The notes under the pieces are model-generated. The model worked only from the letters and a program-made list of their open reading frames with translations, was not told the DNA's origin and made no database searches. This document shows, one piece after another, positions 3,708 through 58,248 of a DNA stretch of 64,000 bases. A program made the position numbers and the translations under genes. This DNA is from a virus: the IMG/VR virus record IMGVR_UViG_3300045988_174992. One strand, written 5' to 3'. Positions within the stretch are counted from its first letter, which is position 1. Each line of letters starts with the position of its first letter.

Positions 3708-3752
3708 TTTATATATGCTTTATAATCTATGCTTATATCTAAAAATAAAAAT

Positions 3753-3772
3753 GGGAAGCATTCCTGCTTCCC
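3753..3772 (-). terminator. intrinsic terminator after GT2 gene
   Basis: Stem gggaagca/tgcttccc with a 4-nt loop. On the reverse strand it is followed by TTTTTATTTTT. Confidence 0.6.
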
Positions 3773-3813
3773 ACCAATATAGATTATTTACATAAATTAT
3801 TTACATAGATTAT

Positions 3814-4809
3814 TTACATACCTGGCAAACTGTTCAAATCTGTCTTGATATACTTTGCTTTCATTTCCTTATTCAAATCTGGGTTCAATTCTGGATCCAT
3901 TTCTACATTATATGTGATATCCTTCCACTTATCTGGATAAATGAACTTAAGCATATATGTATTCAATTTTGACATTTCATCAAAACCTTCACATTCACTT
4001 GACTTGTTGTTCATAATGGCTTCCAAATCAATCATAGAACGTGTATACATGGCTTTAAGAAGCTGTCTATCATCTTTGAATCTTGGGAACAATTCCGCTA
4101 TAGCAGAAATAGTGCCAAGTCTTGTATCAACCCAATTAGTTCTGATAATAGAATTAGATGCCGCTCTGTAGTTGATTTGTGGAATTGGCATAATAACAAC
4201 TTTATTGCAATTGCTTATCCATACTGGAATTGTTCTTACATCTTCAAATGTTCTTACTGTTGAATAAGGATAGCTTTCCACAATCTTTCTTGTATACATC
4301 TTAGACCAAACATTGAACTTGATGAGATTGTCTTTAAATAAAGCTATCTCCATATCATGAGGATCAGTAAGCACAATCTTCTGTGGAGCCGTAGAATTAG
4401 ATTGCTGTCCATTCTGTTGATTGTATATGACACCATATTCTACAACATCAGCATTTTCAGATGTAATTGTATTGTAAGCATTTTCTACAAAGTCAAGATG
4501 AATATAGTAATCATCTGCATCCAAGAACATGAAATAATTTCCTGTAGCATTTTCAATACCAAACTTACGAGCACCACCACATCCAAGATTATTTTCAGGT
4601 TCTACTAGCTTAAACTTGAAATTATCTTTTGATGTATTGTTTATGATATTCTCAACAATATTTCTAGAATTGTCTTGTGATTTGTCATCTACCAAAACAT
4701 ATTCAATTTCACAACCATCTGGTACTTTCTGACCTAAAACAGAGCCAATAGCATTACCAATAAACGTCTGTGCATTGTAAAATGTTGTTATAATTGATAT
4801 CTTATCCAT
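3814..4809 (-). CDS. family-2 (GT-A) glycosyltransferase
   Basis: ISIITTFYNAQTFIGNAIGSVLGQK..YVLVDDKSQDNS..GCGGARKFGIENATGNYFMFLDADDYY matches the classic GT2 N-terminal signature with DxD. Confidence 0.8.
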   Translation of the reverse strand: MDKISIITTFYNAQTFIGNAIGSVLGQKVPDGCEIEYVLVDDKSQDNSRNIVENIINNTSKDNFKFKLVEPENNLGCGGARKFGIENATGNYFMFLDADDYYIHLDFVENAYNTITSENADVVEYGVIYNQQNGQQSNSTAPQKIVLTDPHDMEIALFKDNLIKFNVWSKMYTRKIVESYPYSTVRTFEDVRTIPVWISNCNKVVIMPIPQINYRAASNSIIRTNWVDTRLGTISAIAELFPRFKDDRQLLKAMYTRSMIDLEAIMNNKSSECEGFDEMSKLNTYMLKFIYPDKWKDITYNVEMDPELNPDLNKEMKAKYIKTDLNSLPGM

Positions 4810-4810
4810 G

Positions 4811-5452
4811 TTAGACTTCTAATTTTTTTAATTTGTTCATGGTAGGTGACATCACTATCTCTATAGTGTTTTCTGTGATACGTTGAGTAACATAGAATTT
4901 CCACCCATAAGCATTCATATCAGCTGGTACGGCATATCCTCTCTGTTTTTTAGATTTTCCTGTAGAATTAGGTTCACAATATTCTCCTGGCTTACACTTA
5001 CCATTATCACGTACAATTACTTTACCAATCAAATTTACTCGTACCCATTCTTTACGATTACTACGTTTTACATATTCTTGCTTTGGATCATAATATTGAC
5101 TTGGTACCTGTACATAATGATTATATGGTCTAGTGTGAATATATGAAAACTCTTCTACTTGGTCATACTCTTTTACACCAATAGCAATCTTATCATTCTT
5201 CAAAAACTTATCACCAACTTCATTACACATATATGCATATTTCCAATTGTTTGGATCATCTGAAGTATGTGACGTTTGAATAGTTGTTACACCAAGAATC
5301 TGTTCATCAGAACCAGATTTTACAGGTTCTATCTTATCAGGATTTTCAGAAGAAAATGTAACAAAGAGTCCATAAGGACTCTCTGCTGGTATCTCGGCCC
5401 ACTCATACATTTCTGAATATCCAACTGGATTAATGTATTCGTTATCTTGCAT
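4811..5452 (-). CDS. stand-alone Peptidase_G2 / intramolecular-chaperone (IMC)-like domain protein
   Basis: GYSEMYEWAE..YGLFVTF..ILGVTT..YDPKQEYVKRSNRKEWVRVNLIGKVIVRDNGKCKPGEYC matches my recollection of the fibre C-terminal autoproteolysis domain (DYAEMFEW..FVTL..ILGVVS..R.EW..VGLLGQ..VRDDGTC). Confidence 0.55.
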   Translation of the reverse strand: MQDNEYINPVGYSEMYEWAEIPAESPYGLFVTFSSENPDKIEPVKSGSDEQILGVTTIQTSHTSDDPNNWKYAYMCNEVGDKFLKNDKIAIGVKEYDQVEEFSYIHTRPYNHYVQVPSQYYDPKQEYVKRSNRKEWVRVNLIGKVIVRDNGKCKPGEYCEPNSTGKSKKQRGYAVPADMNAYGWKFYVTQRITENTIEIVMSPTMNKLKKLEV

Positions 5453-6055: not shown

Positions 6056-6148
6056 TTTTAAATAGTATTTAATTAAATTATTTTATTTAAACATGTACAT
6101 ATTATCATGCACAATTATAATATAGAAATATATGAACTAAAAATTCAT

Positions 6149-13537: not shown

Positions 13538-13568
13538 AAAATATAGAACAACCTTTATAAATTTCAAA
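13538..13568 (-). promoter_or_regulatory. -33/-7 promoter-like motif
   Basis: Plus strand reads aaaatatagaacaacctttataaatttcaaag. Its rc gives TTTGAAAT..GTTCTATATTTT upstream of 13521. Confidence 0.5.
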
Positions 13569-15795: not shown

Positions 15796-15862
15796 TTTAA
15801 ATTATTAATATTTTATTGACATGTATAATATAGAAACAATCTAAAAAATTTCAAATAAAATT
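15771..15862 (-). repeat. duplicated promoter/5'UTR/start-codon cassette, copy 1
   Basis: About 92 nt, more than 90% identical to 16236-16331. Contains TTGACATGTATAATATAGAAACAA.CTAAAAAATTTCAAATAAAAT. Confidence 0.8.
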
Positions 15863-16260: not shown

Positions 16261-16331
16261 AATAATTTTAAATGTTATTTATTTATTTGACATGTATAAT
16301 ATAGAAACAAACTAAAAAATTTCAAATAAAA
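16236..16331 (-). repeat. duplicated promoter/5'UTR/start-codon cassette, copy 2
   Basis: See 15771-15862. Confidence 0.8.
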
Positions 16332-17495: not shown

Positions 17496-18983
17496 ATGAA
17501 AAAGAATTGTATCATTATACCTATATATAAAGAAAGTCCTGGTTTATTGGATAAGCTAAGTCTTGAATCATTGTCAAAAAACTTGAAAGATTTTTCTGAT
17601 TATGAAGTTTATTTCATATATCCAGAAAATTTAGGTACAGCACAATGGAAGAGATATGTAGATCATGATGTAATATTACGACCATTTCCTTATGATTATT
17701 TCTTATCAACTTTATCTTATTCTAATCTTCTTGAAAGTTATGAATTTTGGCATACTTTCAAAGAACACGAATATGCATTGATATATCAAACAGATGGATA
17801 TTGTATTGGAGGAAGTCTTAAAGAATATATTGATATGAATTATGACTATATTGGTGCACCTATCATAGCACAGGATGCAAGATGGTTCAATGTTCCTACT
17901 GTTGGTAATGGTGGAGTTAGCTTGAGAAAGATAGATACTATGATAGAGGTAACTGATCCAACTGGGGAATTCATTAGAGAGAATAAAGAAGATATTGATA
18001 AGCATAATAGAATGAACAGCAATATGTATTCTATATATGAAGATTTGTACTTTGCCCAGTTGGTACCAATGCTTTGGGATTTCAGAAAACCAAATTTTGA
18101 TGTTGCTGCTTCATTTGCTTATGATATGAATGCAGATATTGTCTATGAAATGACAAAGCATAAGTTACCACTATTTATTCATGCTTTTGATAAGAATATA
18201 AGATTTTGGCAAAATATTCTTGATGACTTTAAAGATATAGATGTCATATCAGAATGTGAAATAAAGAATGAGAATGAATATCTATCAGAAAGAATAGGAT
18301 ATCAAGCAAATTTAGCTCATATAGATAAGATAAAGATAGCTGCTATAATGATAGTTAAGAATGAAAACTATCATTTGAATGAACAAATTTCTAAGATAAT
18401 ATCTTCTGGTGTTTCTAAAGTTTTTGTTATTGACAACAATGACATATCTGGAGAGAATCCTAAAGATATTCTTGATTTTTCTAATGTAGAATTGATTTCA
18501 AAATACAGAGGAGAACATGAAATATTGTCTGAAGCATATAGTGATGTTTACAATAACTATCTGAATGACTTTACCCATTGTATATTCATAGATGGTGATG
18601 AAGAAATTCATTCTGATTCTTTAAGGAAAACCATATATGATAATATTGATTCTAAAATATTGAAGATAAAGAGCATAATAGTATATAATGATGGTAATAG
18701 ATCTTCTTATCAGAATAATGCTTTCAAAACAGTAATGAAGTGTGGATTACCTATCAGAAACTTTACTAGAGAAGCTCCTTTATATTATATAGATTCTAAA
18801 GAAATTCCAGAAGAAGTATGTTGTTTACATAATTATGTTGGTTGCAATTCATTAGAAGAATATATGCAAAATAAACTTTATCGTGGATATCCAGATAAAG
18901 AAACGACAATTGGAAAACAACTTACCAGCATGGACTTATATTATAAAGTAAATCCACCAAAAAATAGTAGAATATATTTTTAA
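17496..18983 (+). CDS. two-domain glycosyltransferase-like protein (DUF5672-like N-terminus, GT2-like C-terminus)
   Basis: N-terminus: CIIIPIYKE..LIYQTDGY..DYIGAP..VGNGGVSLRK. C-terminus: IAAIMIVKNENYHLNEQISKIISSGVSKVFVIDNND. Confidence 0.5.
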   Translation: MKKNCIIIPIYKESPGLLDKLSLESLSKNLKDFSDYEVYFIYPENLGTAQWKRYVDHDVILRPFPYDYFLSTLSYSNLLESYEFWHTFKEHEYALIYQTDGYCIGGSLKEYIDMNYDYIGAPIIAQDARWFNVPTVGNGGVSLRKIDTMIEVTDPTGEFIRENKEDIDKHNRMNSNMYSIYEDLYFAQLVPMLWDFRKPNFDVAASFAYDMNADIVYEMTKHKLPLFIHAFDKNIRFWQNILDDFKDIDVISECEIKNENEYLSERIGYQANLAHIDKIKIAAIMIVKNENYHLNEQISKIISSGVSKVFVIDNNDISGENPKDILDFSNVELISKYRGEHEILSEAYSDVYNNYLNDFTHCIFIDGDEEIHSDSLRKTIYDNIDSKILKIKSIIVYNDGNRSSYQNNAFKTVMKCGLPIRNFTREAPLYYIDSKEIPEEVCCLHNYVGCNSLEEYMQNKLYRGYPDKETTIGKQLTSMDLYYKVNPPKNSRIYF

Positions 18984-20189: not shown

Positions 20190-21278
20190 CTAAGCAAGTT
20201 CAAATACCGGGCGTGTATTGCAAATAACTACTCGACCTTTTCGTGTAGTCTTAAATGCATCTTTACCATCCTGAACTTCAAACTCCTTAATCTTAACATT
20301 AATAGGATCACCTGGATGATAATCAAGAAGCTTATTAGGATCTATTGGCATCAAACCTGTAATATTCAAACCATCAAGTTCAATGAATACACCTTGCTTC
20401 TTAGCTGAATTGATGATACCTGTAACATGACCATCTAAAACAGGACGTTCATAAGTAACATTATCATTCTTCTTTGCAAGACGTTCCTTCAACCACAAGT
20501 CATACAAATTCTGATAACCATCAAGCTGAAGCAATCGCTTGCGTGAACCAACAATAGACTTCTCAATACATCCAGTAGCATAATCATGCTTGAAGTCAAC
20601 TACCTTCTGTGGAATAATATCAATATCTTGATTTACCCACTTATCAAAGTCCTTTTCAATATTCAATACAATCTGTGAACCAGGAATGAATACTGAATTA
20701 ACATACTCCTTACCAGTAAGTTCAACCAATGGATCAATATTGACATGAGCGATAAATCCACCTTTTACTACTTCATCAATATGAACTGAAATAGGTGTTT
20801 CCTTCTGAATATCATTCTCAATCTGATGCATCCAATAACGGAAATAACCATTAGAAACAGATACAATGTAAGTATTGTCTTTCTTCTCACGTACTTCAAA
20901 CATCAACTGGTTATTATGAGTCATGAGATAGTTACGAATTGCATCAATGCAAGAATTGAAATTCTCCTTACAAATAAGCTCTTCCTTAACACCAGGAATA
21001 GTGAATGTCAAAACATTCTTGTCAAACTCTTTAACTTCACCAAGATAAAGCTGACCAACTTCAATGTTGGTAACTGTATTCATTGCCTTGTCCTTCTTTG
21101 TATCTTCAGACAATTCAATACCATAAGTCTTTGCAAACGCTTTAGCAATAGACATTGTTGCAAATGCTCGTGAATTGAACTTAATTCGATCCTTGTCGTT
21201 TGTAAACATTGAATTCAAAATGTCATTCTCATCTACTCTAGCACCAATGAGATTTTTTGTTTTTGTTTCTTTACTCAT
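20190..21278 (-). CDS. multi-S1-domain (OB-fold) RNA-binding protein, ribosomal protein S1-like
   Basis: Third repeat LDGHVTGIINSAKKQGVFIELDGLNITGLMPIDPNKLLDYHPGDPINVKIKEFEV fits G..V.G.V....G.FV.l....GL.......pGd.i.VkI. Two weaker repeats lie upstream. Confidence 0.55.
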   Translation of the reverse strand: MSKETKTKNLIGARVDENDILNSMFTNDKDRIKFNSRAFATMSIAKAFAKTYGIELSEDTKKDKAMNTVTNIEVGQLYLGEVKEFDKNVLTFTIPGVKEELICKENFNSCIDAIRNYLMTHNNQLMFEVREKKDNTYIVSVSNGYFRYWMHQIENDIQKETPISVHIDEVVKGGFIAHVNIDPLVELTGKEYVNSVFIPGSQIVLNIEKDFDKWVNQDIDIIPQKVVDFKHDYATGCIEKSIVGSRKRLLQLDGYQNLYDLWLKERLAKKNDNVTYERPVLDGHVTGIINSAKKQGVFIELDGLNITGLMPIDPNKLLDYHPGDPINVKIKEFEVQDGKDAFKTTRKGRVVICNTRPVFELA

Positions 21279-21466
21279 TAAAAAGATTTAAAATTTAAAG
21301 GGTTAATAAATAATTTAAGTACAGCATTAACTTTAGTTCTTGAATAGAACTGAAAGTGATATTCATTAATTACTTGTACATATTTAATATAGTATTTGAT
21401 TATATGAAAGTTCAGTAATATTATGTTAATGATTGTTAAATCAACTAAGACAAATTAAGAGACAAG

Positions 21467-21766
21467 CTAATCTGTATTCTTCAACAAAGTTTCATCATCA
21501 CCAGGTCGATATCCATTACCATATCTATCTTTACAAGTAATGCATTTACCAGTTTCATCCCATACCCATCCATCAACAGGTCCTTCTGAAAAGAATACTT
21601 TACCATGTAATTGGTTTGGAATTTCTTTATAATCTACTGAATCTATTTTTACTTCATACCCAGACTTTGTAATAACCGGTTTATCATTATTGATCCAGTC
21701 CATATCCAATTTATCTGGATTAGACTGGATCATTTTTTCTTCTAATAATTTCGATAGTGTTTTCAT
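21467..21766 (-). CDS. hypothetical protein with CTS-like N-terminus
   Basis: MKTLSKLLEEKM... Confidence 0.55.
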   Translation of the reverse strand: MKTLSKLLEEKMIQSNPDKLDMDWINNDKPVITKSGYEVKIDSVDYKEIPNQLHGKVFFSEGPVDGWVWDETGKCITCKDRYGNGYRPGDDETLLKNTD

Positions 21767-21800
21767 ATTTAAAAATTGGTTTAAACCAATTTAGACTACA

Positions 21801-22559
21801 TTATGAAATGGCTGCACGAAGACCTTCGATCTTATCACACTGAGCTTTCTTCTCTACCTTCTTACGATCCTTTTCATAACTATCCTGTCTCTCATATTCC
21901 TTACCCCATTTCTTATAGAAGAAATCATAAGCCTCAGGAATTTCATTCTTAAGCATATTAGTAGTAGTGATAGTAGAGAATGCACAAGAAATATCCTTCT
22001 TGAACTTCAAATATTTCATTGCCTCAATAAAGTAATTCAAGAAAATTTCTTTGACTTCAGGATGATTAAGTGCATACTTTGATATTACATGTACACTATC
22101 ACGACTATTGTCACTATTACAACCCTTGCTGATTTCAAGACCAATGAAGTCAAAATTAAATACATTGTATTTGCTAGTTCTATATCCAAAATAACTTGAA
22201 CCAGAATACTTTACAAGATCAAGCTTGTTTAATAAATCATAAATATAGTTAGCAAACTCAACGGATTCTGGTGTATAATTCCTTTTCTTATTTTCAATTT
22301 TTGCTAAATAACCTGGTTCTTTTGGATCATATTGTGAAGTATTTGCATCAACAAATCTTGCAATATCATAAATGTTTCGCTTCTTCAACTCAAAATAATC
22401 TGGATATTGCTTATATGCTTGCTTTACAATATCTGGCAAATTCTCAGCCATGAAATCAGAAATCTTCTTTTGAGCTTCTGCTTTCTTTTCCATCAAATGA
22501 TTTTTCTCAATATATGTATTACACAAGAAAGTTCCGATTTCATCATACTGATACTTCAA
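21801..22559 (-). CDS. hypothetical protein
   Basis: 252-aa ORF. Confidence 0.55.
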   Translation of the reverse strand: MKYQYDEIGTFLCNTYIEKNHLMEKKAEAQKKISDFMAENLPDIVKQAYKQYPDYFELKKRNIYDIARFVDANTSQYDPKEPGYLAKIENKKRNYTPESVEFANYIYDLLNKLDLVKYSGSSYFGYRTSKYNVFNFDFIGLEISKGCNSDNSRDSVHVISKYALNHPEVKEIFLNYFIEAMKYLKFKKDISCAFSTITTTNMLKNEIPEAYDFFYKKWGKEYERQDSYEKDRKKVEKKAQCDKIEGLRAAIS

Positions 22560-22584
22560 AATAGTTCTACTTTCATAATTTATA

Positions 22585-23079
22585 TTAATTTTTAATGTTT
22601 GACTTTACAATTCTAGCGATATCTGACTTACGTGCATTTGGGTGTCCAGCAACAACATGATTAATTACTGCCTTCATATCCTTTTGAGAAATTTCTCCAT
22701 ACTTAATTACCCAATCTGCTACACCTTCATTGATTTCATCATCTGATGCTGGTTTTGGAAGAAGCTCATTCACAATATTGAGCTGATTCTGTGATTCAGA
22801 AGCATTAGCAATAGACTTTAGCGTGTTGATATTCAAATAAATTTCAACATCCTTCTTAAGCTCTTTCTGTACAGTTTCAAGCAACTTCTTCTCTGTTGCT
22901 AAATCATATACAGGACGTGGCTGACCTTCTTTTACTTCTTGTGTCTTAAATTCCATGATTCGAGACATAATCTGACGAAATGTCATCAAAGCAAACTTGT
23001 CACCCTTTAGCATTGCTTCCTTTACCATAGATGGAAAATCCAAGAAACCATCTTCTGTCTTCTTAATTTCTACAATCAT
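22585..23079 (-). CDS. YqeY-like (GatB/YqeY domain) protein
   Basis: VKEAMLKGDK..LMTFRQIMSRI...ELLPKPASDDEINEGVADWVIKYGEISQKDMKAVINHVV...KSDIARIVKSNI parallels Bacillus YqeY along its length. Confidence 0.55.
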   Translation of the reverse strand: MIVEIKKTEDGFLDFPSMVKEAMLKGDKFALMTFRQIMSRIMEFKTQEVKEGQPRPVYDLATEKKLLETVQKELKKDVEIYLNINTLKSIANASESQNQLNIVNELLPKPASDDEINEGVADWVIKYGEISQKDMKAVINHVVAGHPNARKSDIARIVKSNIKN

Positions 23080-23090: not shown

Positions 23091-23843
23091 TTAAACTTTT
23101 AAAAACTTCTTTAAATATTCTTTAGTTGACGGAACAAACTTACTAGTATCACCAATTGCCCATGCAATATAACCTTGGTCAAAACCAGCTACAAATTCTA
23201 CTCCTAATCCTCTATACTTTCCTAATGTGAAGCAAGGTACAACTTTACCATTGAATTCTTGCATAGCTACTACATTATCAATAGTAAGAATTTCTTCTGG
23301 TTCATAAGGATGTGCTTCTTGCTGCTTTACAAAGATAGCGGCAGTTGCTTTTACATCAGACAAAGCATCATGGGCATTCAAACCACATTCATCCATTGTC
23401 TTACCATAATATCGTTTGAACGTATCTGACAATCTATTTCCATTGATACGCTTTTCTTCATAGAAGCAATCATAATTGTCACAAGTACGTACATCAAACA
23501 ATATTCCACATCTAGAAAATTCTTCTGTCAATATGGCATTATCAAATGAACATCCATTATATGTTACAATATCACATCCAGTAAAGAAATCAAAAATCTC
23601 ACTTGCAACTTCTCTAAAATGAGGTTTGTCTTTTAAAAACTCTGCATTGATATGATGAACCATATAAGCACCAATAGGAATAGAATAACTACCTTCTGGT
23701 TGAATATAATAATTCTTACTATCAATGATTTTCTTTATGTTCCAATCATACTTTACTAATGCAATCTGAATAATCTGATCTTTTGATTTGTCAAGACCTG
23801 TTGACTCAACATCATAAATTACTAATGGTCTATCTCCTAGCAT
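23091..23843 (-). CDS. DnaQ-like DEDDh 3'-5' exonuclease with DUF3820-like C-terminus
   Basis: Exo motifs VIYDVESTGLD, VTYNGCSFDNAIL and HDALSDVKATA. C-terminus reads LGKYRGLGVEFVAGFDQGYIAWAI. Confidence 0.7.
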   Translation of the reverse strand: MLGDRPLVIYDVESTGLDKSKDQIIQIALVKYDWNIKKIIDSKNYYIQPEGSYSIPIGAYMVHHINAEFLKDKPHFREVASEIFDFFTGCDIVTYNGCSFDNAILTEEFSRCGILFDVRTCDNYDCFYEEKRINGNRLSDTFKRYYGKTMDECGLNAHDALSDVKATAAIFVKQQEAHPYEPEEILTIDNVVAMQEFNGKVVPCFTLGKYRGLGVEFVAGFDQGYIAWAIGDTSKFVPSTKEYLKKFLKV

Positions 23844-23876: not shown

Positions 23877-23911
23877 ATATAATATAGAACATTCGTAAAT
23901 TATTTCAAATA
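23877..23911 (-). promoter_or_regulatory. -33/-7 promoter-like motif
   Basis: atataatatagaacattcgtaaattatttcaaat. Its rc is ATTTGAAAT-N-GTTCTATATTATAT. Confidence 0.5.
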
Positions 23912-24405: not shown

Positions 24406-24439
24406 TATATAAGATAGAACAATATTTAGAAATTTCAAT
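24406..24439 (-). promoter_or_regulatory. -33/-7 promoter-like motif (variant AGATAGAA)
   Basis: tatataagatagaacaatatttagaaatttcaat. Confidence 0.4.
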
Positions 24440-31712: not shown

Positions 31713-34700
31713 ATGGGTAATAAAATTCCATCTAGAGTATATGATACAAAAGGAAGAGTTGTAGATGTTGCATTCTCAATGAGAAGAAACACCAAGCAAC
31801 CATTGGATGAATCTTCTCTTCCTTTAAGTTATGATTCTTTAAAAGAAGAGATGAGGACTGGTACTTCATCTATATATAAGGGTCAAATTGTTGTAACTCA
31901 AGGACCTGAAACAATACCAGAAGGAGAAAACCAATCATATTATTATACTCCTTTCCTAATAAAGAATGAAGGTAATAGTGATGTTTCTTATTATGCTGAT
32001 AGAATCATGACTGCTACTTATACTAATACGTTCTTAAATGGAGAATTTGTAAAGAAAAAGCAGTTAGGTACTTCATATACTGGTGTTGGTAAATGGCCAG
32101 ATGCAACAGAAGATAGAGGTTCATTAGCTTACAATGAAATATTCAATGACTATAGTACTTATAGGATTACAAATAACCTTAAAGGTGAAACACCAATAAT
32201 GTCTCATGTTGAAGGTAAGTCGAATACTTTAGCAGGATCTTTTACCCATATAGAAGGATATAACAATACTGGTGGTAGTGATTTTAGTCATGTAGAAGGA
32301 GCAAACAATAATTCTTCTAACAATGCTTCTTATTCACATGTAGAAGGTGAATCAAATTCTGCAATAAATTCAAGCTATTCACATGTTGAAGGTCATTCAA
32401 ACCAGGCAATATCTGCAGCGGCTTCCCATGCTGGTGGTAGTAATTCTAAAGCACTTGGAAACAATGCATTTGTACATGGTACTAACTCTGTTGCTTTTGA
32501 AAATGCTATAGCTATAGGAAAATCAACTTATGCTAAAGCAGGATTTGCTACTGGTATTAATACATCATCTTATGGTATTGGTGCATTTGCAACTGGCAAT
32601 AAGACAATAGCTAATGCTAATTATTCTGTTGCTGAAGGTGAAGGTTCTATATCTAATGGCCAAGGTTCTCATGCTGAAGGTAAAGAATCTAAAGCTTATG
32701 GTAAATATTCGCATGCTGAAGGATTTTCTGTTACTGGTTCATCTACAAATACAGATTTAGGATCCTATTCTCATGCAGAAAATAAGTCAACAGTATTAGG
32801 TACATATTCTCATGCAGAAAACAATGCACAAATAACAGAAACCGCTAACTATGCTCATGCCGAAGGTAGTGGTAAAGCAATTGGTTCATTCTCTCATGTA
32901 GAAGGAACAAACACTGTTACAACAGGTACTGGTGGCCACGCTGAAGGTATTGAAACCAATGCTTATGAATATAGTCATGCTGAAGGCAATTTCTCTTATG
33001 CAAAAGGTACTTATGCTCATGCTGAAGGTAATAGAACAATGTCAGCTGGAACAAGTACACATGCAGAAGGTACTTATACATCAGCTTATTCAATAGCTTC
33101 ACATGCTGAAGGTGGATATGGCATGGCTAATTCAAATTATAGTCATGTTGAAGGTTATAAAACTTATGTTACTTCAAATGCTATAGGTGGACATGCCGAA
33201 GGTAATGGATCATATACAACAGCAGAATATGCTCATGCTGAAGGTGTTGGTACTTATGCTTCTGGATCCGGATCACATGCTGAAGGTATAAGTACTCAAT
33301 CTATAGGTCAATCATCACATGCTGAAGGTAACACCACTATAGCAGAATCTACTTCAGCACATGCAGAAGGTGAGCGTACTAAAGCTATAGGGCAATCATC
33401 CCATGCTGAAGGTGTTTCATCTAATGCTGGTGGAATTGGATCACATGCTGAAGGTAATGGTACTTATGCTAATGGAGTATCATCACATTCACAAGGTGTA
33501 TCAACTTATGCCAATGGAGAAGGATCATTTGCTAGTGGAAATAAGACAACAGCGCAATCTAATTTCTCTTCTTCATTTGGTGTATCAACTTATGCAAACG
33601 GAATTGGCTCTGTATCAGAAGGAAACAATACATCATCTTATGGAGAATTCTCACATTCATCTGGTGTTGGTACTATAGCAAGGGGATCTTACTCTTCTAC
33701 TGATGGTTTCTATACAGTATCTAAGAATAAGACAGAAGTTGGACATGGTACATATAATAGATCATATTATTCTGCTAATGGTTTCTTAGTAGAAAACAAT
33801 GATACTAATAAGATTCCTAATGAATTTGCTCGTGTAAATAACAAATACTTACCAGGTAGATATCCTAATGGAATAGATGGTACTAATAATACAACATCTG
33901 TTGGTTTTTATGAATCCAGTTATGAAACTATTTTCAGTATTGGAAATGGTGGAACTAGTGATACAACAAAAGGCCCTAGTGCTTTATATAAAAAGAAAAT
34001 AGGTGAAACTACTGAAAAGGAACCTATTTATAGTTATGCTGGTAATTATGTAAAAGAAAATTCACGCCATAACATTATGGATATTAGAAAGAATGGTCAG
34101 ATGTATTATGATGGAGGTATGATAATAGGTGGTGAAGTTGTTGCTCCAACATCATATAGCTATGTAAATTCATTAGGTCCAACTGCATATCTGACTACGG
34201 TTATGAGAGCTTTACTTGTACAACCTAAATATTACAGACCTAGTTTACAATATGCTATTTGGTATACTGGAAATAGGATTGCGAACGCAGTTACTTCTAG
34301 TGATAGTGTTGGATGGTCATATTTCCAAAATAGCCAGAATTCTGATGGTATTTGTGAAGTAGGTGCTACAACTAGTTTTGATATACAGTTTAGAGCATTT
34401 AATGTAGGTGTTGATAAACCACAAAACATAGACCCTATATATGGTACTTCATTAGGAAACATGTTGGGTTATTCTACTGGTATAAGGGAAATAACTTATT
34501 TTAAATTACCAGATGGGTCTAATATATCAGCACAAAAATTTGATAAAGTAATACATGATAAAGAATTGCTTGCTGGTATGAAAAGTGATACAGCTTATTA
34601 TTGGCCTAAGAGATTAGTGGCAAACAATGAAGATGTTACAGATCCTAATTATATATATTTGAATGATACTGGAGCAAAAGACCCTTACCATAAATTCAAT

Positions 34701-35591
34701 TGGGCACCTCCTTATGATTATGCTAATTCATATAATTTAGCTTATTATAGTTCATACTGTAATGCTGTGGATAATAGAGGTGCTTTTGGTGAAACCGGTA
34801 AAACAAATTATAACATAGGATTATATTCAACAAGAAGTACAATCTCTAGTTCTATCAAGCTTGATAGGGAAGGTAAATTTACTGTTTGGACAGCATATTC
34901 ATATATATTTAATCCGGCAACCCAAATGTATTTTCAACAACTTATGGAAAAAGCAACATATATACCTGATGATGGTGCCGCACCTTATGATAAATTTACT
35001 GAATTACCTTCATATTCATCTGCATCTTTTACTTTGACGGCAAGATATAGAATATATTATGGTACTACAAATGATGTTCCTTATATAATGGAAAACGGTG
35101 TTCGTAAACCTAATCCATTATGGAAAAAATGGACACAAAATGAATTATTAGGTAAGAAGAATGCTGCTGTTGGAAGATCTAATGGTGATATAGACCATGG
35201 CCATTTATATGGTAATTTACAAGCAGCTTCTGGACAAACACAACAATCTAATGCATCAATAAGTAGATCTGTTAAAACTTGTTGGTTTGCATATCCAACC
35301 AATATATACAGTCTTTACAAACATAATAGTAGCGCTGTACCTAATGGATTCTATATGTATTACAAAAACCAGATGAATGTTGAATCTGCTCTTGATACTG
35401 GTGTTAGAACTCCAGCATCTGATAATGATAATGGGGATGCATTAAGCACAACAAATACTGGACGTGAAAAGTATGAGTTTACTACAGATAATCCAATTAA
35501 TCCTAGTGGATTGAGATATCACATAGTTGCAGTATGTGCACCAGGTGATATTACTAAAGGTACTTGGGGATTCGCATTTAAACGAAAATAA
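31713..35591 (+). CDS. tail fibre/adhesin with SHAEG/SHVEG 14-aa repeats
   Basis: 1292 aa. The shared pre-repeat motif YNEIFNDYS is followed by about 35 repeat units and a large non-repeat C-terminal domain. Confidence 0.75.
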   Translation: MGNKIPSRVYDTKGRVVDVAFSMRRNTKQPLDESSLPLSYDSLKEEMRTGTSSIYKGQIVVTQGPETIPEGENQSYYYTPFLIKNEGNSDVSYYADRIMTATYTNTFLNGEFVKKKQLGTSYTGVGKWPDATEDRGSLAYNEIFNDYSTYRITNNLKGETPIMSHVEGKSNTLAGSFTHIEGYNNTGGSDFSHVEGANNNSSNNASYSHVEGESNSAINSSYSHVEGHSNQAISAAASHAGGSNSKALGNNAFVHGTNSVAFENAIAIGKSTYAKAGFATGINTSSYGIGAFATGNKTIANANYSVAEGEGSISNGQGSHAEGKESKAYGKYSHAEGFSVTGSSTNTDLGSYSHAENKSTVLGTYSHAENNAQITETANYAHAEGSGKAIGSFSHVEGTNTVTTGTGGHAEGIETNAYEYSHAEGNFSYAKGTYAHAEGNRTMSAGTSTHAEGTYTSAYSIASHAEGGYGMANSNYSHVEGYKTYVTSNAIGGHAEGNGSYTTAEYAHAEGVGTYASGSGSHAEGISTQSIGQSSHAEGNTTIAESTSAHAEGERTKAIGQSSHAEGVSSNAGGIGSHAEGNGTYANGVSSHSQGVSTYANGEGSFASGNKTTAQSNFSSSFGVSTYANGIGSVSEGNNTSSYGEFSHSSGVGTIARGSYSSTDGFYTVSKNKTEVGHGTYNRSYYSANGFLVENNDTNKIPNEFARVNNKYLPGRYPNGIDGTNNTTSVGFYESSYETIFSIGNGGTSDTTKGPSALYKKKIGETTEKEPIYSYAGNYVKENSRHNIMDIRKNGQMYYDGGMIIGGEVVAPTSYSYVNSLGPTAYLTTVMRALLVQPKYYRPSLQYAIWYTGNRIANAVTSSDSVGWSYFQNSQNSDGICEVGATTSFDIQFRAFNVGVDKPQNIDPIYGTSLGNMLGYSTGIREITYFKLPDGSNISAQKFDKVIHDKELLAGMKSDTAYYWPKRLVANNEDVTDPNYIYLNDTGAKDPYHKFNWAPPYDYANSYNLAYYSSYCNAVDNRGAFGETGKTNYNIGLYSTRSTISSSIKLDREGKFTVWTAYSYIFNPATQMYFQQLMEKATYIPDDGAAPYDKFTELPSYSSASFTLTARYRIYYGTTNDVPYIMENGVRKPNPLWKKWTQNELLGKKNAAVGRSNGDIDHGHLYGNLQAASGQTQQSNASISRSVKTCWFAYPTNIYSLYKHNSSAVPNGFYMYYKNQMNVESALDTGVRTPASDNDNGDALSTTNTGREKYEFTTDNPINPSGLRYHIVAVCAPGDITKGTWGFAFKRK
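32205..33708 (+). repeat. 42-nt periodic coding repeat array
   Basis: tc(a/t)catgc(t/a)gaaggt cores recur every 42 nt. Confidence 0.7.
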
Positions 35592-35677: not shown

Positions 35678-38600
35678 ATGGCAGTAAAACCAATAGGAAC
35701 AACCGCACTTACATGGGGTAGCTTGCTAGGTAGAGGTAACCGAGAACCAATTGATGCAACTCAATTGAATTATTCTTATACTGATCTCCTCTGGGAATTG
35801 AATCAAAGAACAGTATCATATCAAATTGGTACAAATAATGGTGGATCAGGTAACTATTATGTTGGATTAATTACAGCGGTACCTTATGTAAATGAAGATG
35901 ATAAAAGAAAAGATAGTCATTATACAGTAGATGCTAATGGTAATAAGAAATTAGAAACTATAAATATGAAAGGTCCTTGGTATGTATCTTATAAAGGTAC
36001 AGACAAAGGAAGAGGTACTGCGAAAAATAAATATGGTTTTGTTCCTGATGGTAATCCTAATACATATTATGCAGATAGAATAGTACTTAAGCAAGAGATG
36101 GACTATACTCTTGATAATGGTTTTGTTCGTAAAACACAGCTTGGTACTTATTATACAGGTGTTGGTCATTGGTATGACAGCTATACTAAATCAAAAACTT
36201 ATGCAAATGGTTTAGAATGTCCTGATGGTGTTTATTTTCCTACTACTTCTTATGCTGAAATATTCAATAACTATACATATAATGTAGCTACTGGTATATT
36301 TTCTCATGCCGAAGGTGGAAGTACTACGGCAAGTGGACATTCTTCACATGCTGAAGGTGGGGGTACTACGGCAAGTGGACATTCTTCACATGCTGAAGGA
36401 AACAATACTACATCAAGTGGAGGTAGTTCTCATGCTGAAGGAAAAAATACTAAGGCAAGTGGAAATGAATCTCATGCTGAAGGAGAAAACACCACAGCAA
36501 GTGGAGGTGGTTCTCATGCTGAAGGTATAAGTACTCAATCTATAGGTCAATCATCACATGCTGAAGGTACTTTATCTTATGCTGGTGGAAATGAATCTCA
36601 TGCTGAAGGTAATAATACTAAAGCTAATGGAGATAGTTCCCATGCTGAAGGTGGAAGTACTACAGCAAGTGCACATTATTCACATGCAGAAGGTTATAGT
36701 ACTACAGCAAGTGGAGATTTTTCTCATGCCGAAGGTGGAGATACTACGGCAAGCGGAGATCATTCACATGCAGAAGGTTACTATACTAAAGCAAGTGGAA
36801 GTTGTTCTCATGCTGAAGGTACTGGTACTACGGCAAGCGGAGATTATTCACATGCTGAAGGTCACTATGCTAAAGCAAGCGGAGATTATTCACATGCTGA
36901 AGGTCACTATGCTGAAGCAAGCGAAGATTATTCACATGCTGAAGGTGGAAGTACTACGGCAAGTGGATATTATTCACATGCTGAAGGTATTGGTACTACA
37001 GCAAGTGGATATTATTCACATGCTGAAGGTTCTGGTACTACAGCAAGTGGATATTATTCACATGCTGAAGGTGATAGTACCAAGGCTACTGGATTTAGAT
37101 CTCATGCTGAAGGTACTGGTACTACGGCAAGCGGAGATCATTCACATGCAGAAGGTGCTCTTACTACAGCAAGTGCACATTATTCACATGCTGAAGGTTA
37201 TTCTACTTATGTACATAGTACTGCTGAAAACTCTCATGCTGAAGGTTTTGGATCTTACACTAACGGATTAAATGCACATGCAGAAAACAGTTCTTATGCA
37301 AATGGAAAGAATTCACATTCTGGAGGTGAAGCAACTGCTGATGGGGTCAATTCATTTGCTCATGGTGTAAAAGGAACATTAGCTTCTGGGGTGAATAGTA
37401 TAGCTTTAGTTTCTGGAACTGCATCAGGATCTAATTCTATTGCTTTTACCGGTACTGCTTCTGGTAATAGTTCTATATCTTTAGATGGTACAGCTTCTGG
37501 ATCTAATTCTGTTTCTATACAAGGTACAGCTAAATCAACAGATAGTGTTGCTATTGGACAAGGTGCTATAGCAGAAACAGGCCAAGGTGCTATGGCTTTA
37601 ATAAAAGGACATGCTACTGGACAACAATCATTAGCTACTAATACAAGTTCTGCTTCAGGAACAAATTCCGTAGCTATGAATGTAAGTTCTGCTTCTAATA
37701 CCCAATCATTTGCTGTAAATAATAGTACTGCTTCAGGTATAAATTCTGCATCAACCAATAAAGGTAATGCTTCTGGTGAAAATTCTATTTCTACCAATAT
37801 AAGTACTGCAACTGGAGTTAATTCTGCTGCTTTAAATAATGGTAATGCTTCTGGTGAGGGATCTGTTGCTATGAACTATAGTCAAGCTACTGGTAAAGGT
37901 AGTGTTGCTATTGGTTTAAATACTATTGCATCTGGTGAATATTCACTTTCTCATGGTCATGAAACAAGAATTTCAGGAAATTATAGTGTAGGTTTAGGAC
38001 AAGGAATAAAAGTTTCATCAAACACAAATGTTAGCACTGGTAAGTTTAATAAAGATGAAGCAAGCTACTTTGCTGTTGGTATTGGTATTTCTGATACAAA
38101 TAGAAAGAATGCATTTTGGATTAGCCAGGGTACAACAGCTGGTACTAATGGGGTAAGTTATTTCAGTAACAATACTTATGTATATGGCAATACTTATGAT
38201 CCAAGTCAATATCCAAATAATAAAGAAGATAAGTCATGGTCAGTTGCAGTAACATATAATATGTACAGAAATAGCTATACTTATTTGTATAATACAATAG
38301 ATGATAAATTTGCCACTTTTGGTACCGGAACATATTTTACTCATTCAATTGATGGATTGACTTATACTCCTACTACTAATGTATTCCATTGGAAAACACA
38401 AATATTTGATAAAGATAATAATATCTGGCCTAAACAATCATATTCTTTTACATTTACCCAAGCAAACCATACCAATGCAGGTGTAATGTCTGCTGAAGAT
38501 AAGAGAAGATTAGATAGTATAAAGGGATTTACTTATGATAATGGTAATACCCATGAATACAATTTTAATGAAAATCATACAAAGGGTGATAATTTACATA

Positions 38601-38971
38601 GTTTCCATATAAATACAGATGGTACTATTGGATATACAGGATGGACACAAGGATTTAAATATACAAATAATGAAAGTACTGTAACATTATCATATACACA
38701 TTATACAGGAAATGATAGCAGTATAAATATACCAGTATTGAATGATGGTAATACTATTAACCAAGGATCTGCTAATGCTTCTAAGGCTGGTATAGTTACA
38801 GCAGATCAATATAATAAGATTGTTTCTAGATTGACTTACCTTGAAAAATGGTGTATGTGGCAATCTGGATTACCTAACAACAAGTCTACTTATATTTGGT
38901 CAGGTACATTAGCACAATTTAATTCATTGACATCCAAACCAGAAAATACAACATTTATCATATCAAATTAA
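35678..38971 (+). CDS. tail fibre/adhesin with SHAEG repeats followed by NSxAxG (Hep_Hag-like) repeats
   Basis: 1097 aa. About 24 near-identical SHAEGxxTTASGxx units are followed by GVNSIALVSGTASGSNSIAFTG...-type units, then DTNRKNAFWISQ, ending TYIWSGTLAQFNSLTSKPENTTFIISN. Confidence 0.8.
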   Translation: MAVKPIGTTALTWGSLLGRGNREPIDATQLNYSYTDLLWELNQRTVSYQIGTNNGGSGNYYVGLITAVPYVNEDDKRKDSHYTVDANGNKKLETINMKGPWYVSYKGTDKGRGTAKNKYGFVPDGNPNTYYADRIVLKQEMDYTLDNGFVRKTQLGTYYTGVGHWYDSYTKSKTYANGLECPDGVYFPTTSYAEIFNNYTYNVATGIFSHAEGGSTTASGHSSHAEGGGTTASGHSSHAEGNNTTSSGGSSHAEGKNTKASGNESHAEGENTTASGGGSHAEGISTQSIGQSSHAEGTLSYAGGNESHAEGNNTKANGDSSHAEGGSTTASAHYSHAEGYSTTASGDFSHAEGGDTTASGDHSHAEGYYTKASGSCSHAEGTGTTASGDYSHAEGHYAKASGDYSHAEGHYAEASEDYSHAEGGSTTASGYYSHAEGIGTTASGYYSHAEGSGTTASGYYSHAEGDSTKATGFRSHAEGTGTTASGDHSHAEGALTTASAHYSHAEGYSTYVHSTAENSHAEGFGSYTNGLNAHAENSSYANGKNSHSGGEATADGVNSFAHGVKGTLASGVNSIALVSGTASGSNSIAFTGTASGNSSISLDGTASGSNSVSIQGTAKSTDSVAIGQGAIAETGQGAMALIKGHATGQQSLATNTSSASGTNSVAMNVSSASNTQSFAVNNSTASGINSASTNKGNASGENSISTNISTATGVNSAALNNGNASGEGSVAMNYSQATGKGSVAIGLNTIASGEYSLSHGHETRISGNYSVGLGQGIKVSSNTNVSTGKFNKDEASYFAVGIGISDTNRKNAFWISQGTTAGTNGVSYFSNNTYVYGNTYDPSQYPNNKEDKSWSVAVTYNMYRNSYTYLYNTIDDKFATFGTGTYFTHSIDGLTYTPTTNVFHWKTQIFDKDNNIWPKQSYSFTFTQANHTNAGVMSAEDKRRLDSIKGFTYDNGNTHEYNFNENHTKGDNLHSFHINTDGTIGYTGWTQGFKYTNNESTVTLSYTHYTGNDSSINIPVLNDGNTINQGSANASKAGIVTADQYNKIVSRLTYLEKWCMWQSGLPNNKSTYIWSGTLAQFNSLTSKPENTTFIISN
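36296..37313 (+). repeat. near-perfect 42-bp tandem coding repeats
   Basis: Example: tcacatgctgaaggtgg.agtactacggcaagtggacattct repeated with 1-2 mismatches. Generates spurious ORFs in other frames. Confidence 0.85.
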
Positions 38972-47840: not shown

Positions 47841-47874
47841 TCTAATATAGAACAAACATAAAAAATTTCAAAAA
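47841..47874 (-). promoter_or_regulatory. -33/-7 promoter-like motif
   Basis: rc reads TTTTTGAAATTTTTTATGTTTGTTCTATATTAGA, with TTTG and TATATTAG separated by 19 nt. Confidence 0.55.
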
Positions 47875-49653: not shown

Positions 49654-51438
49654 ATGATATTTGGTAACTTAAGTAACGTATTAGAAGGAAATAAGACTAT
49701 ATATGAACAAGCTAATGATATGATGCCTATACAACAAACCCAAATGCAGATAAAAGAACCTGGTCATCTTGCAAAAATTCTGTATAAGCTCAGTCATTAT
49801 GGTATGAACTGGACTTCTGATGTTGTAAAGAACATGAAAGCAGTACCAGCAGACAAGTTGATGCAACCAAAGGATATTGGTGTAATGACTTCAAACTTGT
49901 ATGCTGGTATAATGGATAACTGGAAACAGAAACCAGAAGAAGACAAGCCATTTAGAGAAAAGACTCTTGAACAGAAGAGAGATGTTTTGAGAAAGATGGC
50001 TATGAATCCAGAAATCGAAGATATATTGGATATCATGGCTAATGAATGTATAGTTTATGATGATAATGATGTTTATATTGGAGAACCTTACATTGAACCA
50101 AGTGTACTGCAACAGTTGAATGAGAATCATATAGAAGAGATAAAGAATTGTGTAGATACGAGTTTCTATAAGATATACATGCTTCTTGATTGGAAAAACA
50201 AAGCTTGGGATCAATTCAAAAGATGGTTGATAGATGGAGTAATAGCTTATGAAATTGTATATGACAACATTGAGAATCCACATACAATCATTGGTATTAT
50301 CCCTATAGATCCAGCTACTATTACTCGTGTTATTGATAATGGTATACAATACTGGGTACAGTTTAAAGATGTGATTGGACAAGAACGTATCATGCTTGAT
50401 TCACAAGTAATATATATCAAATATGAAGATAGTGGAGTAATAGACAGACAATCATATCTTGAACGTCTGATTCGTCCATTCAACATATATAGAATCATAG
50501 AACAAGCACAACTTATCTGGACTGTAACTCAAGCAAGCTTCAAGACAATGTTCACCATACCTGTAGCTGGGATGAACAGAGCAAAAGGTATGCAAACTCT
50601 GAACTCTGCTATGGCCAGATATAAAGAAGATATAGACTTCAATACAGAAACTGGTGAACTTAAAGTAAATGGTAGAACTAATCTTCCATTCAATAAAGAA
50701 TATTGGATGCCAGAAAATGAGAATGGAAAACCAGAGATAGAGACACTTGTTGACCAAGGCCCAAGCCTTAATGATAGTGAACAACTTAAGTACTATCTTT
50801 CTAAGCTATATAAGATGTCTAAGATACCAGAAAGCAGATTTGATAAAGAAAATGCTGCTGCTTGGTTTGGAACTGATCCAACTCAAACCCTTCGTGATGA
50901 AATAAATTTTGGTAGATTTGTTGATAGACTTAGAAATGTATTTTCCATGGTAATCATCAAACCTATTCAAATACAAGTTGCTCTTTCAATTCCAGAAATG
51001 AAGAATGACAAGAGAGTATTGGATGCTATCATATTCAGATATAATTCATATAATCAGTTTACTGAGATGATGGATCTTGAAGTTACCAACAAACGTCTTG
51101 AAACAATTGGTATGCTTAAAGATACATTTACTACAACTGATGCTGAAGGAAATGAAGACAGCTATTTCTCTATGAAATTCTTACTTGAAAGATATCTGAA
51201 GATGTCTGATGCTGATTTTGAATATAACCAAAAATGCAAATGGTTAGAGAAGCAAGAAAAGGGTGATGCTGAATCAGAAGAAGAGGAAAATGGTGAAGAA
51301 GAAATGGGTGGAATAGATTCTGGTTCGGAAGATGCAGGAATGGAAGATGATGGATCTGGGGATGCTGGAGGAGATTCAGAAATGATGGGTGATGTACAAC
51401 CTGACAATTCAGCTGAAGGTGGATCAGGAGAAATGTAA
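49654..51438 (+). CDS. portal protein, T4 gp20-like
   Basis: Collinear with my recollection of T4 gp20: [13 protein letters not shown] / [29 protein letters not shown] / [55 protein letters not shown] / [47 protein letters not shown] / DYWLQRRDGK. Acidic C-tail. Confidence 0.75.
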   Translation: [594 protein letters not shown]

Positions 51439-52246: not shown

Positions 52247-53191
52247 ATGGGTGCAATACCAGGACAAATGCAAGCAAAATGCATTGATTATGGACAGAAT
52301 TTCTTAACAGGACAAGCAACTTCAGTTATTGCTGCTACTGGTATTGATATAGAAGCTGGCAATTTGAAACAGTTGGCAGATGCTGTACAAGACAAGACTA
52401 TGTCTATGGTTTCTGACTTGAAGAATACAGCTACTAAAGAAGTAACTAAAATTGGAAGTCAGATAGGTGGCATGGCTGGTAGCTTAGTTGGTGCTGGATT
52501 ATCTGCTATGCAAGGAGCTTTTCAAACAGCAGATGTTGCTAAGCAAGCGGTTGGAGAACTTACAACGTATGGGGTTCAACTTACTGCTAAAATCGGTACT
52601 AATATAGCAAGTATGATTGCTGCATTTCCTGCACAAGTTACCAAGAAAGCTACTGCTATAGCTGCAGAACAATGTAAAGAAGAACTTCAACAACGATTGA
52701 AAGAAGTGATGGGTACACCAGCAGAAGAGCATGCACAAAAGGAAGCAGAAAAGGAAAAAGAAAACAAAACAAAGAAAGCAATAACTTGGTGTAAGAAAGC
52801 TGTAAAAGATGTCAATGAATTCAAAGATAAGACACTGTCATCTATTCAGAAAGATTGTGAAGATATATCTGCTTTGATGATACAAGGTCCAGGTTGGGTA
52901 AACAATCAGATGAGTGGTGCTATTGATAGTGCTAAAACATATATGTCTGATTATGCCGATGGCAAAATGAAAGATATTCAGAATCATTATGATGAAGCTG
53001 TGAATAATTCTGCTTACGCCGCAGCTACAACAATGAAGAAAAAACTTATAGATCCAACATTAGAAAAAGCTAAAGAACAATTTAATGATCTTGGAACATC
53101 AACAAATAAGACAAAGCAAAAAGCTAAGACAGCTGTTCAAAAACAGTTGTTCAAGCTTGCAGGAAAATTAGGAATATCACCAAATGGCTAA
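52247..53191 (+). CDS. Ala/Gln/Lys-rich coiled-coil protein (scaffold-, internal- or small-terminase-like; unassigned)
   Basis: 314 aa. Translationally coupled to terL through an ATGGCTAA overlap. Confidence 0.5.
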   Translation: MGAIPGQMQAKCIDYGQNFLTGQATSVIAATGIDIEAGNLKQLADAVQDKTMSMVSDLKNTATKEVTKIGSQIGGMAGSLVGAGLSAMQGAFQTADVAKQAVGELTTYGVQLTAKIGTNIASMIAAFPAQVTKKATAIAAEQCKEELQQRLKEVMGTPAEEHAQKEAEKEKENKTKKAITWCKKAVKDVNEFKDKTLSSIQKDCEDISALMIQGPGWVNNQMSGAIDSAKTYMSDYADGKMKDIQNHYDEAVNNSAYAAATTMKKKLIDPTLEKAKEQFNDLGTSTNKTKQKAKTAVQKQLFKLAGKLGISPNG

Positions 53192-58022: not shown

Positions 58023-58033
58023 TTTCTTTTTAG

Positions 58034-58106: not shown

Positions 58107-58248
58107 ATATAAAATCAAATATGGCATCAGATGTGCAAACTATCATGACCATATTCTAGTAATACATTGAGCTATCAGGAGTACCCGTAGATTGCACTGA
58201 CACCTCTAACAACTGCCTAGTTAAATGCTAGGTCCTCTCTATTACTTG

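Follow-up and report, generated by a model that had tools for sequence, protein, structure and literature searches.

Ribosomal protein S1 genes have been reported in huge phages, and the phages that carry a 'possible rpS1' rarely have Shine-Dalgarno sites; ribosome hijacking was proposed, true rpS1 status was judged hard to confirm, and a role 'on or off the ribosome' was left open (Al-Shayeb et al., 2020; PMC7162821). The S1 proteins in the supplementary GenBank files of that study are 356–386 amino acids (aa) long (PMC7162821), and a jumbo cyanophage bS1 has already been published as well. In E. coli bS1, two aromatic residues of the N-terminal helix, F5 and F9, stack on F32 of uS2, K43 of domain D1 inserts into the zinc pocket of uS2, and K117, F120, and F130 of domain D2 line the mRNA exit (PMC10123108). 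By what means Bacteroidota ribosomes, which do not use Shine-Dalgarno pairing, select their start sites is an unsettled question; upstream adenines are suspected to be read by bS1, which is invisible in structures of initiation complexes, and F. johnsoniae bS1 stimulates initiation on mRNA lacking a Shine-Dalgarno site (PMC13000457). Here, we describe a gene for a short bS1-like protein, which we call mini-bS1, at positions 20190–21278 on the minus strand of IMG/VR virus record IMGVR_UViG_3300045988_174992. The whole stretch analyzed, 64,000 nucleotides (nt) of phage DNA, is referred to as the window.

As judged from profile and fold comparisons, the 362-aa product of this open reading frame (ORF) is a true but divergent and shortened bS1 homologue, not a generic OB protein. 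The NCBIfam bS1 models match the single sequence with E values from 1.8e-12 to 1e-6, the alignments falling on the N-terminal half of the models or the start of their S1 portion, and the value of 1.8e-12 establishes homology to bS1 despite scores below the curated cut-offs. Since phmmer with the single protein found no match among PDB sequences, a family profile was needed. At E ≤ 1e-3, the family numbers 606 homologues of conserved length, which fall into about 110 clusters when grouped at 50% identity, and some of them carry the JGI label 'ribosomal protein S1'. With this profile, F. johnsoniae bS1 (PDB 9zcd) was matched at E 3.5e-9, positions 61–248 falling on D1–D2 residues 39–200, and E. 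coli bS1 at E ~2e-5. An hhalign comparison with residues 1–348 of E. coli bS1 gave 97.2% probability (E 4.7e-11) and placed phage aa 42–337 on bS1 residues 2–254 in an alignment that is collinear across the docking helix, D1, D2, and D3; the D1–D2 half alone (E. coli residues 1–175) gave 93.9%. A PHROG search with the protein returned no match.

An AlphaFold2 model of the protein, built from a 50-sequence alignment, was confident (predicted local distance difference test [pLDDT] 86.6, predicted template modelling score [pTM] 0.71). In this model, N-terminal helices (aa 17–65) are followed by three OB barrels linked by long helices. When PDB was searched with Foldseek, 16 of the 18 matches at E ≤ 0.001 were bS1 or organellar S1 homologues, with bS1 on top, and fragments of ribosome-bound D1–D2 had target-normalised template modelling (TM) scores of 0.53–0.65. 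A preliminary description of this DNA had called the gene S1-like; profile, hhalign, and Foldseek comparisons all uphold that identity and make its first two domains the counterparts of the ribosome-binding D1 and D2.

On the minus strand, the N-terminal helical region of the model (aa 1–76, 21051–21278) contains a putative docking helix (aa 44–52, SIAKAFAKTY, 21123–21149) that aligns to the uS2-binding N-terminal helix of bS1. It is followed by OB1 (aa 77–140, 20859–21050), the predicted D1 counterpart from the model and from the profile match to F. johnsoniae bS1 39–200, and by OB2 (aa 163–245, 20544–20792), the predicted D2 counterpart, whose KGGF...FIPGSQIVLN motif aligns to KGGF...AFLPGSLV of E. 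coli. OB3 (aa 281–361, 20196–20438) is a predicted S1-type RNA-binding domain and the counterpart of D3, to which hhalign aligned it (E. coli residues 188–254). The sole Pfam S1 match of the protein also lies here (aa 285–340) and scores 15.8 bits, short of the gathering score of 22. The three barrels of the model agree with the earlier claim of up to three S1/OB repeats; to call the last a textbook S1 motif was an overstatement for the single sequence, because the Pfam S1 score is below the gathering score.

Like bS1 of E. coli (RpsA) and F. johnsoniae (PDB 9zcd), mini-bS1 has tandem S1/OB domains, the collinear order of helix, D1, D2, and D3, and the AF(L/I)PGS motif of D2. By contrast, it is phage-encoded, scores far under the curated bS1 thresholds, and has three OB domains in 362 aa, whereas bS1 has six domains in 557–591 aa. 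It also differs in an extra N-terminal segment of ~40 aa, an insertion of 12–13 aa before OB1, and the long helical linkers. Domains D4–D6 are absent; the chain stops at aa 362, with OB3 as the sole domain beyond the D2 counterpart. Hence the tandem domains and the homologous D1–D2 module of bS1 are present, but not the four C-terminal domains (D3–D6) of Gram-negative bS1. As to the source of the gene among cellular bS1 proteins, hmmsearch preferred F. johnsoniae over E. coli, hhalign scored the two equally, and NCBIfam preferred Firmicutes-type models. OB1 also gave weak matches to the S1 domains of PNPase.

Two other kinds of shortened S1 invite comparison. Organellar short S1 homologues have three domains. 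The 'S1 homologue' of the Chlamydomonas chlororibosome (PDB 9tvu chain a) resembles mini-bS1 in having fewer domains than bS1, is ribosome-bound, and was matched by Foldseek (E 5.3e-9) and by the family profile (E 1.3e-3); such proteins differ in being organellar or cellular, and the sequence relationship is no closer. The E. coli fragment S1(1–106) is enough to bind S2 and the ribosome, and its overproduction displaces native S1 and is harmful to growth (Byrgazov et al., 2012; PMC3296737). Like mini-bS1, it is a shortened S1 in which the uS2-binding module is retained, but it is a laboratory construct that lacks an RNA-binding domain, whereas the phage protein is the product of a natural, conserved gene with OB2 and OB3.

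The main new point concerns the residues that would dock the protein on the ribosome. Taking equivalents from the hhalign alignment with E. coli bS1, we noted that F5 corresponds to phage F48 (94% conserved in the family), F9 to Y52 (84% conserved, 90% aromatic), and K43 to K98 (92% conserved). In the D2 counterpart, F120 corresponds to F175 (aromatic in 100%), F130 to F197 (98% conserved), and K117 to K172 (basic in 58%). Mean column identity in the family is just 31%, and F197, F48, and K98 rank 14th, 20th, and 23rd in conservation among the 362 positions. Thus, to the extent that the alignment assigns them correctly, these anchor-equivalent residues are among the most constrained of the family. 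Other constrained positions are R31 (98%) and the invariant G174 and P199, and OB3 is strongly conserved at G283, T286, G287, G296, F298, and E300.

Next, we compared the family with other phage S1 proteins. By hhalign, it matches two 'possible rpS1' proteins of huge phages, ALT_09252017_20_scaffold_111_47 (386 aa; 98.1%, E 1.3e-13, over 280 columns that include the N-terminus) and Mad1_20_16..._539 (357 aa; 97.4%). In BFVD, Foldseek found the family member A0A8S5LPI3 at E 7e-28 and phage entries named '30S ribosomal protein S1' (373–385 aa) at E 1e-15 to 7e-17. Mini-bS1 resembles the huge-phage proteins in being phage-borne, of similar length, and from a Shine-Dalgarno-poor genome. It differs in belonging to a divergent subfamily of its own, for which tblastn gave no match at E 1e-3 in our collection of 50,697 phage records, which served for DNA and protein searches; blastn with 5.5 kb of the DNA and tblastn with the S1-like protein itself found none in these records even at E 10. 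On visual inspection, the Mad1 and LacPavin proteins seem to fit four OB domains into an equal length, whereas mini-bS1 has three with long helices. Portal and large terminase (TerL) genes, the leaders described below, and the hhalign matches together place a multi-S1-domain phage protein in a genome lacking Shine-Dalgarno sites. On this profile evidence, the mini-bS1 family is a well-supported addition to the phage rpS1 class, for which D1–D2 homology and conservation of the anchor-equivalent residues can now be documented.

The only bridge from this family to Lak phages was a distant member, P0133, which by tblastn detected an S1-like ORF in 15 of 15 Prevotella Lak phage records. The Lak-A1 ORF (MK250016.1, about nt 437295–438416; 3377–4498 of locus L020) encodes 369 aa with three OB domains and the motifs SFNWTPYEDG, HESYAQELYDAY, and KGGF...KAFMPGS; it is unannotated, as the Lak records carry no annotation, and has no in-frame TAG. 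It matches the family by hhalign (98.5%, E 2.5e-15) and D2–D3 of E. coli bS1 by BLASTP (E 2e-10), and no mention of it was found in those Lak papers and supplements that were searched. Lak-A1 thus has the same S1-like architecture, and a YqeY gene is also common to Lak phages and the window. Lak phages recode TAG, whereas the window uses the standard code (code 11). Collectively, the mini-bS1 family is widespread, consisting of ~360-aa proteins of Shine-Dalgarno-poor jumbo or mega phages of the Lak/Bacteroidota-phage lineage.

We then examined the leaders of the window genes. A 4-mer Shine-Dalgarno core occurs at –20 to –4 in 3 of 55 genes, compared to 9% of random 17-mers, in line with the earlier statement that the leaders lack Shine-Dalgarno sites. 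Across the window and related loci, the core was found in 10 of 220 genes, at or below background. The same leaders had been called extremely A-rich; the last 30 nt are instead A+T-rich (A 49%, T 35%, G 8%), and the leader of the S1-like gene itself is T-rich.

Upstream of the S1-like gene, the sequence confirms a spacer of 188 nt, as first described; over the set of relatives, the corresponding spacers measure 47–188 nt. The spacer had been credited with an AGTTCT/AGAACT hairpin reminiscent of S1 autoregulation. The 6-bp inverted repeat AGTTCT-ATTCA-AGAACT does exist (21335–21351, minus strand; left half GTTCTAT at 21350–21344, 71 nt upstream of the ATG). However, the predicted fold of the 188-nt leader is no better than those of shuffled sequences (z +0.46), and the right arm AGAACT is unconserved in relatives, whereas TTCTAT, which overlaps the left arm, is kept upstream of the gene in four of four relatives. 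TTCTAT is also the core of a motif, KTTCTATMTT, with 11 exact matches against 2.8 expected, a number reached in none of 100 shuffles; the minus strand carries 9 of these, and the majority are located 27–72 nt ahead of a tRNA or of genes on the minus strand. The repeat is better read as part of a promoter-like element that serves the non-structural genes. We rejected an autoregulatory hairpin on account of the leader fold, the unconserved arm, and the enriched motif, and S1-type autoregulation is not supported, given also a spacer of such variable length.

From its placement, KTTCTATMTT is probably an early or middle promoter of this phage lineage; it differs from the Bacteroidota promoter consensus, TAnnTTTG. 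Minus-strand copies, often with the sequence TTGTTCTATATT, were noted at 6119–6128, 13540–13549, 15827–15836, 16298–16307, 23881–23890, 24411–24420, 47844–47853, and 60049–60058. That at 23881–23890, with the sequence GTTCTATATT, lies 46 nt upstream of an exonuclease gene. A related copy lies at 21344–21350, and the plus-strand structural genes are largely without the motif.

A second gene on the same strand, at 22585–23079, encodes a 164-aa protein that had been aligned to YqeY, and this assignment is secure: by sequence and fold, its product is a genuine YqeY. Pfam PF09424 matches aa 18–159 over profile positions 7–140 of 143 with 41.5 bits, above the gathering score of 27. Of the two Pfam profiles proposed for this locus, YqeY therefore scores above its gathering score, whereas S1 falls below. 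A PDB sequence search with the protein gave YqeY matches only. Its AlphaFold2 model (pLDDT 91.9) has the all-helical YqeY fold, and YqeY proteins take the first six places among its PDB fold matches, the best being 8xjg (TM 0.71/0.78, root mean square deviation 2.7). The phage protein shares the full-length Pfam match and the all-helical fold with the solved YqeYs (B. subtilis 1ng6, C. jejuni 8xje, V. parahaemolyticus 8xjg), but is ~20% identical to them and has a 15-aa N-terminal extension. In the phage collection, only 15 Lak phages have relatives of it (31% identity, E 1e-14).

The YqeY family is related to the tail of GatB that binds tRNA. Among YqeY domains, tRNA binding is documented only for that of D. 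radiodurans GlnRS, which enhances the binding of tRNA-Gln in cis (PMC1865053). Francisella yqeY is co-transcribed with rpsU, which encodes bS21, and yqeY adjoins rpsU in several bacteria; we saw no rpsU here. We infer a tRNA- or translation-related role for the phage YqeY.

The S1-like and YqeY genes belong to a block of minus-strand genes in the order DnaQ-type exonuclease, YqeY, 252-aa ORF, 99-aa ORF, S1-like gene. The first gene (23091–23843) encodes a DnaQ/RNase T-type 3'-5' exonuclease (Pfam RNase_T, E 7.7e-24; NCBIfam DNA polymerase III epsilon models). The 252-aa ORF (21801–22559) is unassigned, with no match in Pfam, PHROG, or NCBIfam; it has 363 homologues, and among the 120 listed, all are at least 85% identical and none has a Pfam domain or annotation. 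The 99-aa ORF (21467–21766), directly upstream of the S1-like gene, matches neither Pfam nor PHROG. It is kept in the close relatives L004–L006 with 36–70% identity, but L001 has an unrelated ORF in its place, and on that ground we rejected a conserved partnership between the S1-like gene and an upstream ORF of ~95 aa. The block order is retained in L004 and L005; the L001 block has extra genes, ClpP among them, and the equivalent block of L006 is without YqeY. Adjacency of exonuclease and YqeY is kept in L001, L004, and L005.

The preliminary description had combined the S1-like and YqeY genes with 19 tRNA genes and a Pol-beta nucleotidyltransferase into a coherent translation-takeover set. 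This picture is not supported. Both ARAGORN and Rfam (the latter with permissive filters) found 17 tRNA genes, not 19, in an array at 58033–63950 on the minus strand. This array belongs to the same genome but, being ~35 kb away, falls outside the locus. The 48 window ORFs scanned against Pfam included no Pol-beta nucleotidyltransferase, and YqeY, as noted, is missing from the L006 block. The genes of the block share a genome and an early-type strand block, but form no dedicated translation operon or module.

Two further observations concern the tRNA array. The tRNA-like gene at 60762–60833 (minus strand; Rfam tRNA 43.6 bits) has an odd anticodon loop ('tc'), and ARAGORN left its identity undetermined. 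Also within the array, a 207-aa ORF (61364–61987) with a weak HhH-GPD match is preceded on the minus strand by a leader of almost pure A (61988–62030, AAAAAGAAATAAAAAAAAAAAAATAAAAAGAAATAAAATG).

The source of the window is a large tailed phage. The window has a G+C content of ~31% and encodes a portal protein (49654–51438) and TerL (53184–55985). The standard code reads it well, with 88% coding density and an intact TerL, and its stop codons are TAA (49), TGA (3), and TAG (3); on the code, the coding density, and the intact TerL, we rejected a Lak phage proper. The exact S1-like protein is present on 277-kb metagenome contigs from the human gut, the longest recorded contig being 455 kb, and its 90%-identity cluster contains 1108 sequences; this jumbo phage is therefore very common in the gut. 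Within the phage collection, the portal proteins nearest to that of the window, at 29–37% identity, are those of Sphingomonas phage PAU, of 462–735-kb huge phages (Al-Shayeb et al.), of Prevotella Lak phages, and of Tenacibaculum and Chryseobacterium jumbo phages.

Several other ORFs of the window were noted in passing. The TerL ORF (plus strand, 933 aa) has a tblastn match to the huge phage LR756500.1 in three pieces over 4.4 kb of that record, a pattern that suggests an inserted intein or intron in either gene or in both. Three very large ORFs, at 1101–3707 (minus strand, 868 aa), 31713–35591 (plus strand, 1292 aa), and 35678–38971 (plus strand, 1097 aa), have three to six repeats each of one PHROG domain, phrog_25468, sit in the highest-GC stretches of the window (36–39%), and are probably paralogous tail-fibre or receptor-binding proteins. 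ORFs for a family-2 glycosyltransferase (3814–4809, minus strand), a 495-aa DUF5672 protein (17496–18983, plus strand), and a protein with a Peptidase_G2 autoproteolytic domain (4811–5452, minus strand) hint at glycan modification or tail-spike functions.

What might mini-bS1 do? Homology to bS1, conservation of the anchor-equivalent residues, Shine-Dalgarno-poor genomes, and relatives among Bacteroidota phages together make a ribosome-directed role plausible. In the mechanism that we propose, and to which we give an even chance, mini-bS1 would dock on host uS2 in place of bS1 and load AU-rich phage mRNAs. The protein would be made from an early-type promoter and would bind uS2 of the host 30S subunit through F48 and Y52 of the docking helix and K98 of OB1, in competition with, or as a supplement to, host bS1. 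OB2 and OB3, at the mRNA exit channel, might then help to load phage mRNAs that are AU-rich and lack Shine-Dalgarno sites. A broader version is tentative and, in our view, somewhat doubtful: across the lineage of gut jumbo and mega phages, Lak phages included, mini-bS1 may dock on host uS2 by its anchor-equivalent residues, displace the six-domain bS1 of the host, and so turn the Shine-Dalgarno-independent ribosomes of Bacteroidota into phage-specialised ribosomes that prefer AU-rich leaders, with the co-inherited YqeY and tRNAs acting on the tRNA side.

A number of observations weigh against a ribosome-docking bS1 homologue in a Bacteroidota host. The single 362-aa sequence misses the Pfam S1 threshold (15.8 vs 22 bits) and all NCBIfam bS1 cut-offs (best 46.3 vs 624 bits). 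The docking-helix match lies at the edge of the hhalign alignment, and a 12–13-residue insertion is needed before OB1. We noted that an N-terminal motif, FEWPEF in distant members and SFNWTPY in Lak phages, visually resembles the Bacteroidia bS1 helix NFNWHNF; as neither hhalign nor hmmsearch with an N-terminal profile gave statistical support, the likeness is a visual lead only. D1–D2 of bS1 also dock off the ribosome, for example in Qbeta replicase, which is among the fold matches. Finally, the labels of the metagenome-assembled genomes (MAGs) with family-bearing contigs are mostly Firmicutes, and the best NCBIfam matches are Firmicutes-type S1 models.

With regard to the host, the phage relatives point to Bacteroidota as the predicted hosts. 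Leaders lacking Shine-Dalgarno sites in all related loci fit a Bacteroidota-type host and contradict the Firmicutes labels. Three related loci (L007, L008, and L010) come from GTDB representative 'genomes' labelled Romboutsia sp., Clostridia bacterium, and 'Firmicutes bacterium RUG343' (a 410-kb scaffold), which hold phage contigs; these labels probably reflect mis-binning of low-GC jumbo-phage DNA. We rejected the MAG labels as composition-driven mis-binning, since the genomes have no Shine-Dalgarno sites and the portal and YqeY relatives are from Bacteroidota phages. The Bacteroidota setting first assumed for the window is thus favored by those relatives and by the Shine-Dalgarno-poor leaders, and is at odds with the MAG labels and the NCBIfam models.

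Host S1 also acts off the ribosome, with T4 RegB and Qbeta replicase. By analogy, mini-bS1 could be an off-ribosome RNA-binding protein (a free RNA chaperone, a protector of mRNA, or a cofactor of a phage RNA enzyme), its D1–D2 module sitting on a phage protein. Replicase-bound S1 D1–D2 (4q7j, 4r71) is indeed among the fold matches, OB1 weakly matches the S1 domains of PNPase, and the neighbors are a DnaQ-type exonuclease and unassigned ORFs, with no translation genes; Al-Shayeb et al. had themselves kept both settings in play. Nevertheless, the conserved positions include the counterparts of F5, F9, and K43, which contact uS2, as well as the exit-channel patch of OB2, the family is tied to Shine-Dalgarno-poor genomes, and no partner enzyme is conserved beside the gene. 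We regard an off-ribosome role as unlikely, although not far-fetched.

Docking on uS2 might, on the other hand, serve to shut host translation off. A dominant-negative factor would occupy the bS1 site and keep host mRNAs from being translated, whereas the AU-rich leaders of the phage, being unstructured, would not need full bS1 function to initiate; the reasoning is that one RNA-binding domain cannot recruit structured host mRNAs. The effect of overproduced E. coli S1(1–106) on native S1 and on growth (PMC3296737) is a precedent, and the loss of D4–D6 and the early-type promoter-like motif before the gene are what such a factor might be expected to have. The strong conservation of OB3 favors a retained RNA-binding function over a simple plug, and we hold a shut-off role to be decidedly unlikely. 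A single-stranded DNA-binding protein (SSB), whose three OB folds would serve replication or recombination beside the DnaQ-like exonuclease that heads the block, was already disfavored and is very improbable: the fold matches to baculovirus LEF-3 and to DNA binders with a HIN domain are weak (E ~1e-3, TM ~0.16) and are set against strong sequence and fold matches that are all bS1 (E 2e-11 to 1e-5), a domain order collinear with D1–D2–D3 that includes the D2-specific AF(L/I)PGS, and the lack of any SSB, RPA, or PHROG SSB match in Pfam and PHROG. Other possibilities take up the remaining probability.

The interpretation of this locus as serving translation takeover is therefore plausible but not new, since the same idea had been put forward for huge phages by Al-Shayeb et al. 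(2020); mini-bS1 is a clear further example, not a new kind of system. What it changes is the standing of the 'possible rpS1' of huge phages, which is upgraded to a demonstrated D1–D2–D3 homologue as far as profile alignments can establish one, and the range of its carriers, to which the Lak megaphages are added. A compact natural phage bS1, with putative docking residues and one RNA-binding domain, is a tractable probe. With it, one could ask what the minimal function of bS1 is in Shine-Dalgarno-independent initiation, and whether phages build specialised ribosomes.

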